This document shows positions 1 through 4,002 of a stretch of 4,002 nt of DNA, piece by piece. This DNA is from a virus. Lineage: Duplodnaviria; Heunggongvirae; Uroviricota; Caudoviricetes. The notes beneath the pieces were generated by a model, which saw only the letters and a program-made list of their open reading frames with translations, had not been told where the DNA came from and ran no database searches. Position numbers and translations under genes: made by a program. Position 1 is the stretch's first letter; every line of letters starts with the position of its first letter. The DNA is taken from the IMG/VR virus record IMGVR_UViG_3300029476_000064; one strand, given 5' to 3'.

Positions 1-636
1 GTTGCTGACGGGCGACTCGGAAATTTTTGGCGAAGAATCTAGGGCTGGCGCGGTCTGCATGGTGGTGGGCGACTCGGCTTTTTCGGCACCCTGAAGCATG
101 GCGTCGCGGCATCCGTCATACGCTTCTTTCATAGCATCACGCACCCATCCGACAGGTTTCTGCTCAGTCAACTCACACCATTTCTCGAATGTGGGCACAG
201 ATACCGGAACTGGCGGTGCTGCATAAAGCGCCTGACAACTCCAGCCAGACCAGTGAGCACCCTCCGCTCTCTCATCATCTTCAGGGCGAACAAGCGTGAC
301 TTCGCTCGGGTGTTTCCTGTGTGACCACAGCCAGGCTACGGTTTCGGCATTGGCTGGCTCTGGCGGGGCGGAGTAAAAATACTCATCCTCAATCCCATCA
401 ACGGGCTTTGAGAAGCCGATAAAATCACCATAATGCCAAGGATAGGGGCCGTATGGCTCAGAGGTCACACGACGCCACCGGTGAATGGCAGGCTCCGCTT
501 CGAGCGATGCCAGCGCGATACGCAGTGCCGCCAGCGTGTTGCTGTCGCCTTCGTCCAGACCGAACGGGATTTCATCTCTGGCTGCTTCCATGTCGGCAAT
601 TTTCTGCTGCAGCCATTGTTTGGTAATAGTGCTCAT
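1..636 (-). CDS. Hypothetical phage protein, 3' end beyond window (at least 211 aa visible)
   Basis: My own translation of the minus strand is open from 636 down to position 1. ATG at 636..634 is preceded by an AAGGAGAGG Shine-Dalgarno and overlaps the upstream stop (ATGA at 636..633). N-terminus reads MSTITKQWLQQKIADMEAARDEIPFGLDEGDS. Not in the ORF track, presumably because it is incomplete. I do not recognise the family. Confidence 0.55.
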   Translation of the reverse strand, partial: MSTITKQWLQQKIADMEAARDEIPFGLDEGDSNTLAALRIALASLEAEPAIHRWRRVTSEPYGPYPWHYGDFIGFSKPVDGIEDEYFYSAPPEPANAETVAWLWSHRKHPSEVTLVRPEDDERAEGAHWSGWSCQALYAAPPVPVSVPTFEKWCELTEQKPVGWVRDAMKEAYDGCRDAMLQGAEKAESPTTMQTAPALDSSPKISESPVSN

Positions 637-902
637 GATGCCTCTCCTTTACCGGATGCGGCGGCGATCAGCTTCTGCGCCTGCTGAATGTCAGGATTGC
701 CTGCAATCATCACTTCTGGCGCGTCACAGTCACCGCCAAGGTCAAGAATGCGCTCATGTCCGGTACGCAGGCAGGATTTGTATCCTGAAACCGTCTGCTT
801 GAGCGATTCGGTCAGCACAGCAATCCTCTGGTCTTTGGCTTCCAGCTCATCCAGCAGCGCCAGCACTGTGGCTGGGTTGGCTGCGGAGTTCAGCGCGTTC
901 AA
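633..902 (-). CDS. C-terminal segment of a small hypothetical protein; 89 codons from TTG at 902, probably the downstream part of a gene interrupted by an in-frame TGA
   Basis: ORF track entry starts at a TTG with no Shine-Dalgarno upstream. It is in the same frame as the 38-codon ORF at 930..1046, separated only by a TGA at 932..930 and nine sense codons. Stop at 635..633 overlaps the next ATG. Confidence 0.4.
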   Translation of the reverse strand: MNALNSAANPATVLALLDELEAKDQRIAVLTESLKQTVSGYKSCLRTGHERILDLGGDCDAPEVMIAGNPDIQQAQKLIAAASGKGEAS

Positions 903-929
903 GGCAGTGATATCTGCATCAAGCTGAGT

Positions 930-1046
930 TCATTCTGCCAGTGAGATATCGAAAATGTCATCAGGCGGCATAACACTAAGGCGCTCATGTGCACCAACTG
1001 CTGCCTCAGCGATTTCACGTAATGCGCGTTTGTCGATGTTGCTCAT
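930..1046 (-). CDS. Small ORF, 38 aa (MSNIDKRALREIAEAAVGAHERLSVMPPDDIFDISLAE); likely N-terminal part of the interrupted gene continuing to 633
   Basis: ATG at 1046..1044 with GGAGGA about 7 nt upstream; ATGA overlap with the stop of the 76-aa ORF. Ends at TGA 932..930. Below the ORF-track length cutoff; translated by hand. Confidence 0.4.
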   Translation of the reverse strand: MSNIDKRALREIAEAAVGAHERLSVMPPDDIFDISLAE

Positions 1047-1273
1047 TCTTCATCCTCCAACTCAGATACGGCGTCCATTACATCTGAGCCGCGAATGGTT
1101 TCGAATGCCACACAAGCCATTTCAAAGCACAGGCGCTCATGCGGGTGCGGAGATTGCCAATACTTGAAGCCAGGACGATGCGAATAGCCCTGCATCGCAT
1201 AAAACTCTCCGGCCAATTCAATGGCGGCATCCACCAGTTCACGGTTTGTCATTGGTTTGTCGATGTTGCTCAT
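1043..1273 (-). CDS. Small acidic hypothetical protein, 76 aa
   Basis: ORF track. ATG at 1273..1271 with AGGAGG 7 nt upstream; ATGA overlap with the upstream stop. Begins MSNIDK and carries an acidic C-terminal tail (SELEDEE). I do not recognise the family. Confidence 0.55.
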   Translation of the reverse strand: MSNIDKPMTNRELVDAAIELAGEFYAMQGYSHRPGFKYWQSPHPHERLCFEMACVAFETIRGSDVMDAVSELEDEE

Positions 1274-1470
1274 TGGGCGGCCTCCTGGATTAACTTTTCG
1301 AGAATGGCATCAAGGGCTTTCCGTTTTCCGATATACCCGCCACCAACCCACTCTCCACGAAGCAAGGCGTAATATTTCCCGTCGTCTTCGTGATACGGTC
1401 CTCGGATAGACCAGTCGGTTGTGATGGCGTCGATAGCCTTTTTAGTTTCTGCGAAATCCATCATGCTCAT
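1270..1470 (-). CDS. Small hypothetical protein, 66 aa (MSMMDFAETKKAIDAITTDW...)
   Basis: Internal ATG of the 85-aa track ORF at 1470..1468, preceded by GGGGGAGGG and forming an ATGA overlap with the ren stop. The longer start at 1527 would overlap ren by 60 nt and is less likely. Confidence 0.5.
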   Translation of the reverse strand: MSMMDFAETKKAIDAITTDWSIRGPYHEDDGKYYALLRGEWVGGGYIGKRKALDAILEKLIQEAAQ

Positions 1471-1760
1471 ACCCCTACCCTCCCCCAAACCATCAACACC
1501 CGCTTCATCGCGGCACTCTGGCGACACTCCTTAAAAATCAGGTTAGTGCTCACCTTTCCTTCCCGTTCTTCCCTGGTAGCGAATCTGTAATACACCGTTC
1601 GCCAGACCTTACCATCAATGACCAAGATTCCTGCCCGCGCCATTTTAGCCGCAGCCTGATTTATGCTGGTTACTGTTGCGCCTGTTACCGCGGCAACGTC
1701 CTGCGCACAGAAGCTCTTATGCGTCCCCAGGTAATAAATAATTGCCTCTTTGCCCGTCAT
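1467..1760 (-). CDS. ren: Ren protein (Rex-exclusion resistance), lambda-like
   Basis: The 97-aa translation (MTGKEAIIYYLGTHKSFCAQDVAAVTGATVTSINQAAAKMARAG...) closely matches lambda Ren as I recall it. Position directly after P with an ATGA overlap, as in lambda. AAGGAG Shine-Dalgarno upstream. Confidence 0.85.
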   Translation of the reverse strand: MTGKEAIIYYLGTHKSFCAQDVAAVTGATVTSINQAAAKMARAGILVIDGKVWRTVYYRFATREEREGKVSTNLIFKECRQSAAMKRVLMVWGRVGV

Positions 1761-2448
1761 ACACTTGCTCCTTTCAGTCCGAACTTAGCTTTGATTTCTG
1801 CGATCTTCGCCAAAGCCTGTGCACGATTTAAAGGTCTACCGCCCATGACAGGAAGTTGTTTTACTGGTTCAGGTATCGCCTCACCACGGTTAATTCGCGC
1901 GGTCATACAGGTCAGCTCATCGGCAGCTTTACGCCGTAATTCCGCGTCAGTCAGCGCATTGGCCCGCATGTTCTGGTACAGGTTGGTAACCAACCAGTAG
2001 TGCGCGTTTGATTTCCATGGATAAGACTCTGCGTCCGGATACAGGCCACGCTTCCGGCAATACTCGTAAACCATATCAACCAGCTCGCTGACGTTTGGCA
2101 GTCCGGNNNNNNNNNNNNNNNNNNNNNNNNNNNNNNNNNNNNNNNNNNNNNNNNNNNNNNNNNNNNNNNNNNNNNNNNNNNNNNNNNNNNNNNNNNNNNT
2201 TCCATCGTGGTGATCCCGTTTTCCCGAAAAGCCAGAACCCACTGGCGACGGATTTCGTTCACTTCGTTCTGGTCACGGTTAGCCAGGCTCGCCGGGAAAG
2301 TTGCCAGTAACTGGCTGAACACACCGTTGATGATCTGCGCTACCTGCTGTACCTGCGGCTTTTCGTCGTACTGTTCCGGCATGTTGTTGGCGATCCGACG
2401 CATCTGCTCACGGTCAAAGTTAACCATCTGTGCGGCGATGTTTTTCAT
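1757..2448 (-). CDS. P: Replication protein P (DnaB helicase loader), lambda-like; coding sequence interrupted by an N run at 2107..2199
   Basis: N-terminal track ORF (MKNIAAQMVNFDREQMRRIANNMPEQYDEKPQVQQVAQIING...ITTME) and C-terminal track ORF (GLPNVSELVDMVYEYCRKRGLYPDAESYPWKSNAHYWLV...GLKGASV) both match lambda P as recalled. The two track ORFs are in different frames because of the N run. ATG at 2448..2446 overlaps the O stop. Confidence 0.85.
2107..2199. other. Run of 93 N (gap or masked sequence) inside the P gene
   Basis: Seen directly in the sequence. The flanking P reading frames are out of phase across it, so 93 is probably not the true length. Confidence 0.95.
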
Positions 2449-3374
2449 AGATCCACCCCGTAAATCCAGTCTGTGTTTGTCAGGTCGAGTTTTGGTTTGC
2501 TGGCTGTCACGCCTGCCTGTTGCTTGTTACGGTTGATTTCGAGTTGGGTCCACTTATCGCGGAGTTTGGCCGGACTTAGCACGTTACCGGACCAGAAGTT
2601 GTCCTGGCATGCCCAGCGGAACAGCACGCACATGTCGCGGTGGTTACGTCCGTCACGTTCACGCATCAGGCGGATATCGTTAGCCCACCCTGCAAAATTC
2701 GGTTTTCTGGCTGATGGCGCGATGGTCTTCACCATGTCAAACATCCACTCTGCGGCGGTCAGGTCTTCTGCTGTCCCCCACCTGCTGCCGCTCTGAATTG
2801 CAACATCTGGTTTCTCCACAGGAAGATCGTTTTCTGGTTGGTCAGAGGATTCGCCAGAATTCTCGGACGAAAAAGGTTTTATATTGTCTTTTGTTAGTTT
2901 GTCTTTTGTGTTTACCTGATTCGGGTAAACGCCTTTACCTGATTTGGGTAAACTTTTCTTACCTGATTCAGGTAAATTTACCTCTTTCAGGTAAACTTTA
3001 TTTTTCTTACCTGATTCGGGTAATGTTGACCATTCACTGACCACATTATTAATGCCGATATTCCGCCCGCTCTGAATAAAAATCCCACGCTTTACCAGAA
3101 CACTTTTTGCAGCAGAACACTTGTGCGGCAATATCCCGGTCAACTCGGAAAGTTGCTCGTTGCTCACCCAATCCAGTTTTTTATTAAAGCCATATGTTTT
3201 GCGCATGACAGCCAGGAAGACCAGAAGCTGGTGCTGTGTTAATCCGGCCAGCATCACAGCTTCCAGCAACTCATTTGCAATGCGCGTATAACCATCATCG
3301 AGATCTGCCACATTACGCTCCTGTTTGGCAAAGTTACCTCTGCAGAAGTTGAGTATTTTTGCTGTATTTGTCAT
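2445..3374 (-). CDS. O: Replication initiator protein O, lambda-like C-terminal domain with a divergent N-terminal iteron-binding domain
   Basis: The 309-aa track ORF has a first ~27 aa and a C-terminal ~125 aa (SRWGTAEDLTAAEWMFDMVKTIAPSARKPNFAGWANDIRLMRERDGRNHRDMCVLFRWACQDNFW...TNTDWIYGVDL) that match lambda O as recalled. The middle differs. AGGAG Shine-Dalgarno upstream; origin iterons lie inside the gene. Confidence 0.9.
   Translation of the reverse strand: MTNTAKILNFCRGNFAKQERNVADLDDGYTRIANELLEAVMLAGLTQHQLLVFLAVMRKTYGFNKKLDWVSNEQLSELTGILPHKCSAAKSVLVKRGIFIQSGRNIGINNVVSEWSTLPESGKKNKVYLKEVNLPESGKKSLPKSGKGVYPNQVNTKDKLTKDNIKPFSSENSGESSDQPENDLPVEKPDVAIQSGSRWGTAEDLTAAEWMFDMVKTIAPSARKPNFAGWANDIRLMRERDGRNHRDMCVLFRWACQDNFWSGNVLSPAKLRDKWTQLEINRNKQQAGVTASKPKLDLTNTDWIYGVDL
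2875..2911. other. AT-rich region next to the iterons (candidate DNA-unwinding element of the origin)
   Basis: The stretch GGTTTTATATTGTCTTTTGTTAGTTTGTCTTTTGTGTTT is strongly AT-rich and lies immediately promoter-distal to the iterons, as in lambda ori. Confidence 0.5.
2912..3023. repeat. Replication origin iterons: five copies of a 17-bp dyad-symmetric repeat TTACC-N7-GGTAA inside the O gene
   Basis: Copies at 2912-2928, 2935-2951, 2959-2975, 2978-2994 (variant TTACCTCTTTCAGGTAA) and 3007-3023. They sit in the O linker region, the same place lambda carries ori, but the repeat sequence differs from the lambda iteron. Confidence 0.8.
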
Positions 3375-3377
3375 AAT
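3349..3377 (+). promoter_or_regulatory. pO-like promoter for oop RNA (-35 TTGAGT, 17-bp spacer, -10 CATAAT)
   Basis: TTGAGT at 3349-3354 and CATAAT at 3372-3377 on the plus strand. The flanking sequence is near-identical to the lambda pO/oop region as I recall it. Confidence 0.6.
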
Positions 3378-3384
3378 GACTCCT

Positions 3385-3462
3385 GTGGATTGATCCAGTA
3401 ATGACCTCAGAATTCCATCTGGATTTGTTCAGAACGCTCGGTTGCCGCCGGGCGTTTTTTAT
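3385..3462 (+). ncRNA. oop: oop antisense RNA, about 77 nt, overlapping the 3' end of cII on the opposite strand
   Basis: Sequence GTGGATTGATCCAGTAATGACCTCAGAATTCCATCTGGATTTGTTCAGAACGCTCGGTTGCCGCCGGGCGTTTTTTATT is near-identical to lambda oop as recalled. It has an internal ATCCAG/CTGGAT stem and ends at an intrinsic terminator. Confidence 0.7.
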
Positions 3463-3703
3463 TGGTGAGTCCATCAAGCGCATACTTAAAAGCCCTGCTA
3501 ATCGGACTGATGTCTGATGCCATTCCGAAAGCACACAAGACCGAAGCAATAAATCTCCAGTCCGTTCTGCTTATCTTCGATTCATGACAGCCAATCATCT
3601 TTGCCAGACCGCGCTGGGTAATAGCTGACAGATTGATAAGTAAATCTGTTTCTGCGCGATCAACGTCACGCTGTGATAGTTTGCTGTAACTTGTTCTTTC
3701 CAT
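3407..3703 (-). CDS. cII: Transcriptional activator CII; C-terminus identical to lambda CII, N-terminal part divergent
   Basis: The 98-aa track ORF ends ...LTNKKRPAATERSEQIQMEF, which matches the lambda CII C-terminus as recalled. The N-terminal region has the SKISR helix-turn-helix-like motif but differs from lambda. Position between the cro-like gene and O, with the 3' end overlapped by oop. Confidence 0.85.
   Translation of the reverse strand: MERTSYSKLSQRDVDRAETDLLINLSAITQRGLAKMIGCHESKISRTDWRFIASVLCAFGMASDISPISRAFKYALDGLTNKKRPAATERSEQIQMEF
3436..3460 (+). terminator. Intrinsic terminator of oop (lambda tO-like)
   Basis: Stem GCTCGG (3436-3441) pairs with CCGGGC (3448-3453) with one G-U, loop TTGCCG, followed by a T6 run at 3455-3460. 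Confidence 0.75.
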
Positions 3704-3788
3704 TTCTTAAGATTTCCAATAGTGAATAGTTAGTTGAAAGGTATGCGTGGAAACGCATATGGCCTTAGTTGGTCAGATATCTTGGAAC

Positions 3789-3834
3789 TCGCTTTTCAGC
3801 GACGTAGGACGAATGTCCGTTGTTACAAAGAGCG
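3789..3834 (-). promoter_or_regulatory. Candidate nutR-like antitermination site: boxA-like CGCTCTTTG plus boxB-like hairpin TCGCT-GAAA-AGCGA
   Basis: On the minus strand, CGCTCTTTGTAACAA (plus 3834-3820) resembles boxA (CGCTCTTA in lambda, TGCTCTTTAACAA in rrn). Downstream, TCGCTGAAAAGCGA (plus 3802-3789) is a 5-bp stem with a GAAA-type loop like lambda boxB. Location between the cro-like gene and cII matches lambda nutR. The boxA-to-boxB spacer is longer than in lambda. Confidence 0.4.
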
Positions 3835-3844
3835 GATCCGCTTA

Positions 3845-4002
3845 TTAAGCGGCTTTGTGTTCCGGCGGGAACACGTCATCAAGACTGACTTTTGCGCCTA
3901 ACTTGTTTAGGCACGCAACAAGAGCACGGCATGTTTTAAGGTCTGGGAAGCGACGACCAGATTCCCAATGTCCGATAGCTCCCTGTGTGCATCCAACTGC
4001 CT
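3845..4002 (-). CDS. Cro-like HTH (XRE-family) regulator, 5' end beyond window; 51 C-terminal codons visible
   Basis: My own minus-strand translation from 4000 gives AVGCTQGAIGHWESGRRFPDLKTCRALVACLNKLGAKVSLDDVFPPEHKAA, ending at TAA 3847..3845. The pattern matches the recognition helix and following helix of XRE-type HTH proteins. Same strand as, and immediately upstream of, cII, which is the cro position. Confidence 0.55.
   Translation of the reverse strand, partial: AVGCTQGAIGHWESGRRFPDLKTCRALVACLNKLGAKVSLDDVFPPEHKAA

Follow-up and report, generated by a model that had tools for sequence, protein, structure and literature searches.

A probable 'ea'-type accessory gene cassette, including an inactivated Ead/Ea22-like gene, between ren and the nin genes of a lambdoid prophage

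What occupies the position behind ren, where lambda carries its nin genes, in the lambdoid prophage sequence of IMG/VR record IMGVR_UViG_3300029476_000064? The stretch analysed (4,002 nucleotides (nt), hereafter the window) holds the rightward early region of such a prophage on its minus strand. An earlier note on this DNA had described, directly after ren, an open reading frame (ORF) of 66 amino acids (aa), an acidic one of 76 aa and an interrupted one of 38+98 codons, each preceded by a Shine-Dalgarno sequence and overlapping the stop before it as ATGA; both the coordinates and the description were correct. We consider it likely that four (or more) coupled delayed-early genes make up a mosaic accessory cassette, drawn from the 'ea'-type gene pool and placed in the slot between ren and nin/Q. 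The features concerned are the following:

1467-1760, minus strand: ren, 97 codons, the last lambda-like gene
1270-1470, minus strand: orf66, 66 codons, its ATG overlapping the ren stop (ATGA)
1043-1273, minus strand: orf76, 76 codons, acidic product, its ATG overlapping the orf66 stop
633-1046, minus strand: Ead/Ea22-like gene, 137 codons (38 + TGA + 98), PF13935
930-932, minus strand: premature TGA, codon 39 of the Ead/Ea22-like gene
1-636, minus strand: 5' part of a fourth coupled ORF, 212 codons, its start overlapping the Ea22-like stop (ATGA)
1028-1047, minus strand: 20-nt direct repeat, copy 1, spanning the Ea22-like start codon (MSNIDK)
1255-1274, minus strand: 20-nt direct repeat, copy 2, spanning the orf76 start codon

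From ren through the fourth ORF every junction is an ATGA stop/start overlap, and the same 4-bp overlaps are present in the RefSeq annotation of an identical prophage. The starts of orf66, orf76, the Ea22-like gene and the fourth ORF are preceded by the Shine-Dalgarno sequences GGGGGAGGG, AGGAGG, GGAGGA and AAGGAG, respectively, at a spacing of 6-9 nt for the first three. The run of coupled genes extends past position 633, as the fourth ORF, missed in the earlier note, starts at 636. When positions 1-2100 of the window were searched for sigma-70 promoters and intrinsic terminators, nothing above chance was detected, and no such signal divided the cassette from O, P and ren; a search against Rfam matched no family.

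The Ren protein shares 89% identity with lambda Ren across 93 aa and matches PHROG 142, 'Ren-like exclusion protein', with E=6e-41. However, megablast similarity to lambda-type phages stops at window positions ~1489-1494, about 8 codons ahead of the ren stop. Therefore, the 3' end of ren contains a mosaic junction, and the proposal of a variable mosaic slot holding coupled, non-nin small early genes is upheld. Positions 1-1500 of the window are 100% identical to prophages of Escherichia coli SF-468, MS15052, 10035004-3 and UID2404240036, and 99-99.8% identical to those of about 20 further E. coli strains; at least 80% of this segment is held by 25 of 5,426 complete genomes. In SF-468 the gene order is P, ren, the 66-aa protein gene (WP_000062289.1), the 76-aa protein gene (WP_000065088.1), an Ea22-like pseudogene, a 268-aa protein gene and two hypotheticals, after which come ybcN, ninE, ybcO, rusA, ylcG and Q. 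Therefore, the cassette fills the front of the nin slot. The orf66 and orf76 products of the window are identical to the two RefSeq proteins just named, and the cassette sequences are already known, being present in RefSeq as hypothetical proteins plus a pseudogene.

As the earlier note had held, the products are unlike the nin proteins of lambda: none matches a Nin family (NinB, NinC, NinD, NinE, NinF, NinG, NinH or NinI) in Pfam, NCBIfam or PHROGs. In scans of every product with Pfam, PHROGs, NCBIfam and PADLOC, the only families found were PF13935, PHROG 4132 and, for the 268-aa protein, PHROGs of unknown function; a PADLOC match to DpdC (E=0.017) was dismissed as noise. Searches of the PDB with single sequences and with family profiles returned nothing meaningful.

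ORFs as short as these, and lacking a functional annotation, could be chance reading frames in non-coding spacer DNA. The homologues of orf66, found in Enterobacter, Citrobacter and metagenomes, have lengths of 66-67 aa throughout, with 15 invariant positions, and those of orf76 are ~74 aa long with 18 invariant positions, so that both lengths are kept across genera. In codon alignments with homologues 64-79% identical in protein, the nonsynonymous divergence (dN) was 0.14-0.31 while synonymous sites were near or at saturation, and the ratio of nonsynonymous to synonymous divergence (dN/dS) was 0.05-0.10 for orf66 and orf76 where it could be computed, with a value of 0.32 in one close orf66 pair. 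Judged from these alignments, both genes are under strong purifying selection. The Shine-Dalgarno sequence and ATGA overlap of every ORF and the confident AlphaFold2 model of the orf76 product also speak against chance frames. Because homologue lengths are kept and dN/dS is low, the ORFs are not products of chance; this explanation is refuted by the pattern of conservation and we regard it as scarcely credible.

The earlier note had found no function assignable to any of the three products, which still holds for orf66 and orf76 after family and structure searches, but not for the interrupted ORF, which belongs to the Ead/Ea22 family. When it was scanned with the TGA codon swapped for a sense codon, residues 2-100 matched PF13935, the family of lambda Ea22 and P22 Ead, with 83.9 bits (cut-off 27) and E=2.1e-23, far over the gathering threshold. 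The protein also matches several PHROGs lacking an assigned function. Pairwise BLAST against lambda Ea22 detected no similarity, and membership is at profile level only. Thus one of the three products falls in a named family, itself poorly understood, where the earlier note would have given way to confident homology of all three to well-characterised proteins.

The Ea22 protein of lambda and Stx phages is an early protein that is pro-lysogenic through a host partner (PMC7093339, PMC10834534). Its short N-terminal region is followed by a coiled coil and by a C-terminal domain that varies, the full-length protein being tetrameric and the C-terminal domain dimeric (PMC7093339, PMC10834534). The gene in the window resembles this family in being an early, coupled accessory gene, in its MSNIDK-type N-terminus, which recurs in the aligned E. 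coli prophage relatives of ~93% identity, and in a K-G-E motif near the C-terminus, as noted for Ea22 (PMC7093339). In contrast to lambda Ea22, the window protein has 137 aa instead of 182, differs in its C-terminal part, and is encoded by a gene that a nonsense codon inactivates and that lies after ren in the rightward operon, not between exo and xis. The position downstream of O-P-ren, and not in the leftward early exo-xis or ea region, is shared by other Ead/Ea22 members that are also found after replication genes; the leftward location is typical but not obligatory. In E. coli prophages and in phages mEp213 and mEp043, the interval between abc/erf and xis-int contains the nearest Ea22-like relatives, whose first 210 nt are ~93% identical. 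Homologues of orf76 also occur in this interval, HK629 being a further phage concerned.

The Ead/Ea22-like frame is not intact, as codon 39 is TGA. This codon could be decoded, as selenocysteine or by programmed read-through, or the gene could be deliberately split into two products, and the finding of the TGA allele in 11 records from several unrelated strains does indicate a stable state and not a sequencing error. However, E. coli C8 has a prophage whose copy of the cassette, 99.5% identical, contains an uninterrupted gene for all 137 aa (WP_000065101.1), and in the alignment of four intact relatives codon 39 is GGA (Gly) in C8 and in the three more distant ones, TGA being present only in the window. 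A 61-mer centred on the TGA was exact in 11 of 59 matching E. coli records and had one mismatch in the other 48. Since the relatives have GGA and the 61-mer recurs exactly in those 11 records, the TGA is, on the evidence of the aligned alleles, a real and inherited G-to-T nonsense allele of GGA, held by a minority of the lineage.

Significant structure was not found in the RNA 3' of the TGA (z=-0.92), and the sole in-frame restart after it is a TTG at 902 with no upstream Shine-Dalgarno sequence. Because of these two results the Ead/Ea22-like gene, as read from its sequence, is inactivated and a pseudogene in this lineage, rather than recoded or split. RefSeq likewise calls the SF-468 allele 'ead/Ea22-like family protein, internal stop', a pseudogene. 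Recoding was rejected in view of the GGA in the relatives and the insignificant RNA structure, and together with a deliberate split it is very improbable.

The C-terminal K/R-G-E tripeptide of Ea22 proteins has been described as 'of unknown significance' (PMC7093339). Its coding sequence, AAAGGAGAG or AAGGGGGAG, is a Shine-Dalgarno sequence. Of the 14 Ead/Ea22-like genes examined, 8 have K-G-E (or K-G-G-E as a variant) with the ATG of the next ORF following 0-7 nt from the stop, as in the window (637-654, minus strand: ggtAAAGGAGAGgcatcATGA); in lambda the motif is kept without a nearby downstream ATG. The conserved tripeptide may reflect a translational-coupling or cassette-linker signal rather than a protein function.

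The fourth ORF leaves the window, and its acidic product has 268 aa in the identical SF-468 prophage (WP_060710351.1). It has no match in Pfam and matches PHROGs 28084, 60, 5117, 660 and 3323, all without an assigned function. At the DNA level, the fourth ORF and the Ea22-like gene together give a two-piece, ~93% identical match to the early-left 'ea' region of phages mEp213 and mEp043.

The orf76 product has an isoelectric point of 4.57 and a net charge of about -9, and its residues 4-76 match profile positions 106-178 of 179 in PHROG 4132, of unknown function, with E=4.8e-37. AlphaFold2 predicts a three-helix bundle (predicted local distance difference test score (pLDDT) 91.3, predicted template modelling score (pTM) 0.79), in which the invariant residues gather in the loop between helix 1 and helix 2 (GYxHRxGFKYWxSxHPxE). 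A Foldseek search with this model against PDB and BFVD gave nothing at E<=0.001, and the lone suggestive structure match was an uncharacterised Acinetobacter phage protein of the same family.

Homologues of orf76 occur in both temperate and lytic phages of Enterobacterales, Acinetobacter and Vibrio. They include phiV10 gp47, HK629 gp34 and orf95 of the P1-like phage D6, uncharacterised proteins of ~74 aa to which the orf76 product is 76-79% identical, as well as proteins of Klebsiella phages, Acinetobacter phage BS46 and Vibrio phages. The 158 Enterobacterales clusters that match the orf76 profile are all short proteins without a Pfam domain, and none of 120 listed profile matches is named beyond hypothetical or uncharacterised. 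Domain fusions that might have been informative about orf76 were sought and none was found, the Acinetobacter BS46 and Vibrio copies being stand-alone small genes.

The start of orf76 and the start of the Ea22-like gene carry a 20-nt exact direct repeat (coding strand AATGAGCAACATCGACAAAC). Among the aligned members of the orf76 family, the MSNIDKP start is found only in the window sequence and in P0016 and P0017; compared with the members of PHROG 4132, the orf76 of the window would have gained this Ea22-type MSNIDK start via the repeat. The repeat is probably the footprint of recombination at cassette boundaries.

In contrast to orf76, the family of orf66 is narrow, with 15 clusters in a set of 5.8 billion proteins and 9 representatives in a library of 1.84 billion proteins searched exhaustively with HMMER. 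No match to orf66 was found in Pfam, PHROGs, NCBIfam, PADLOC or PDB, nor by tblastn against 50,697 phage records, and its AlphaFold2 model was poor (pLDDT 59). The distribution of its homologues suggests a conserved early protein tied to the post-replication slot.

A short part of orf66, its core at residues 18-38 (window ~1357-1419; DWSIRGPYHEDDGKYYALLRG), matches a 21-residue unit in P0089 with E=5.8e-14. P0089 is a repeat-rich metagenomic protein of 1,828 aa in which the unit (GEIHEQDGKYYVVLDEEN) is present 8 times. The likeness may represent a shared small hairpin motif or convergence; as a clue to the function of orf66 it was set aside as uninformative, only the 21-residue 'HExDGKYYxxL' motif being in common.

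That orf66 and orf76 are adjacent, overlap by 4 bp and are similarly small is what a toxin-antitoxin-like or otherwise obligate two-gene pair would look like; a toxin-antitoxin-like pair was one of the possibilities named in the earlier note. The neighbours of their homologues do not agree with this. The homologues of orf66 always lie directly after replication genes, of either the lambda O/P type or the DnaC type, and ahead of nin/Q, and what follows them is an Ead/Ea22 gene, either directly or after an unrelated ORF of 94 aa; at the loci examined, none was followed by an orf76 homologue. Upstream of the orf76 homologues stand various unrelated genes, among them DUF4752, a 64-aa ORF and an eae-like gene. 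The homologues are followed by an Ead/Ea22-like gene in HK629, in phiV10 and at one metagenomic locus, the first two thus having the orf76-type gene immediately upstream of that gene as in the window; elsewhere they adjoin Dam, phiTE_015-like genes or other small ORFs. Moreover, the products of orf66 and orf76 are both acidic, and no toxin, antitoxin or helix-turn-helix family was matched in Pfam, NCBIfam or PADLOC. The pair is largely refuted by synteny, and an obligate partnership of the two genes, toxic or otherwise, is highly improbable.

The position of the orf76 homologues also varies, from the leftward 'ea' region in HK629 to the post-replication region in phiV10, and the same gene types also follow the replication genes in phiV10, in prophages of Enterobacter and in metagenomic prophages. 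Given such varied neighbours, the genes behave as independently shuffling single-gene cassettes of the 'ea' pool, and orf66 and orf76 are therefore no obligate pair. Because orf76 travels between phages as a single-gene unit, it most likely acts on its own, as a small acidic protein-binding module.

The explanation that we favour is an accessory cassette of 'ea' genes, as follows. The 'ea'-type gene pool of enterobacterial temperate phages would have supplied orf66, orf76, the Ead/Ea22-family gene and the 268-codon ORF. From the gene layout, the cassette is expected to be transcribed together with O, P and ren in the rightward early (pR-type) operon, and translated through coupled termination and reinitiation at the ATGA junctions. 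Its products would be dispensable and would modulate the host cell or the choice between lysis and lysogeny; they would not be enzymes of replication or recombination. By analogy with Ea22 of lambda and Stx phages, the Ea22-type protein would be an oligomeric coiled-coil scaffold showing its variable C-terminal domain to a host partner and would tilt development to lysogeny, an activity that the allele in the window would have lost.

Several points weigh against this explanation. None of the products has a demonstrated function, and the orf66 product could not be modelled at its low pLDDT. The pro-lysogenic role is transferred by Pfam membership only, in a protein for which pairwise BLAST showed no likeness to lambda Ea22. 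Both the transcription from pR and the coupled translation are deduced from the arrangement of the genes. Finally, the purifying selection on the two small genes, orf66 and orf76, agrees with a specific function, for instance in anti-defence, as well as it does with a role as modulators.

A specific function of this kind would be the early inhibition of a bacterial immune system by the products of orf76, orf66 or both, as when a small acidic protein binds and blocks a defence effector or sequesters a signalling molecule. The small size and acidity of the proteins, their place in an early-gene array and the strong purifying selection on both genes agree with such a role. So does the spread of orf76, as a lone gene, across unrelated phages, temperate as well as lytic, within small early-gene arrays, as is typical of counter-defence genes, and its confidently predicted fold offers a candidate binding site in the conserved loop rich in His, Arg, Lys, Tyr and Trp. 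However, these features are generic to phage accessory genes, no likeness of orf76 to solved structures was found, which would include the anti-defence proteins deposited up to 2026, and no paper was found that connects Ea22-like genes to anti-defence. We therefore consider anti-defence cargo unlikely. That orf76 founds a new family of counter-defence proteins or host-factor inhibitors is less likely still; orf66, which is confined to the slot directly behind the replication genes, might then be another inhibitor of that kind.

Compared with known systems, the accessory cassette of 'ea' genes shares with the lambda nin region (ninB-ninI) the slot between ren and Q, the operon position, and the style of tightly packed, overlapping and non-essential genes. 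Genes of the nin region vary widely and can be dispensed with in the laboratory, and nonsense codons have inactivated some of them (PMC5630979). In contrast to lambda, the intergenic spacer between ren and ninB is replaced by a direct ATGA overlap. The lambda exo-xis genes and the P22 'ea' genes are of the same kind as those of the cassette, namely small early genes that overlap, are non-essential and occupy a mosaic slot, but the cassette is located in the rightward operon, and it differs from these and from the nin genes in including two unannotated families.

The remainder of the window, upstream of ren in the direction of transcription, contains the following genes:

1757-2448, minus strand: P, broken by a run of N
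2445-3374, minus strand: O, with iterons
3407-3703, minus strand: cII
upstream of cII, minus strand: C-terminal end of a Cro-like gene

The run in P consists of 93 N at positions 2107-2199, masked or unassembled, and the sequence flanking it is identical to the P gene of the SF-468 prophage. Inside O, at positions 2884-3000, tandem repeats of 19-23 nt (TTACCTGATTCGGGTAAAC type) correspond to the ori iterons of a lambda-type replication origin. Identity to the SF-468 prophage covers positions 1-3311, with divergence from ~3311, inside the 5' part of O; therefore, a second mosaic junction lies in the N-terminal part of O. The cII/Cro-like end of the window (3312-4002) differs from SF-468, which has a YdaT-type module there. 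Outside the window, at 7288-8141 of the extracted locus, the SF-468 prophage carries a Panacea-domain gene and a partner between the kil/gam side and the repressor; this pair, which has no relation to the cassette, may form a toxin-antitoxin or defence module.

The locus holds little new biology, in that the cassette is an annotated and recurrent piece of the E. coli prophage mosaic, present with hardly any change in 24-25 of 5,426 complete genomes, whose sole identifiable gene is a pseudogene in the window. It is, on the other hand, a clean example of how 'ea'-type genes move between the leftward and the rightward early operons, and such moves would use short conserved linkers made of a start codon region and a Shine-Dalgarno sequence. 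Within it, orf66 and orf76 are reasonable candidates for anti-defence or host-takeover screens.

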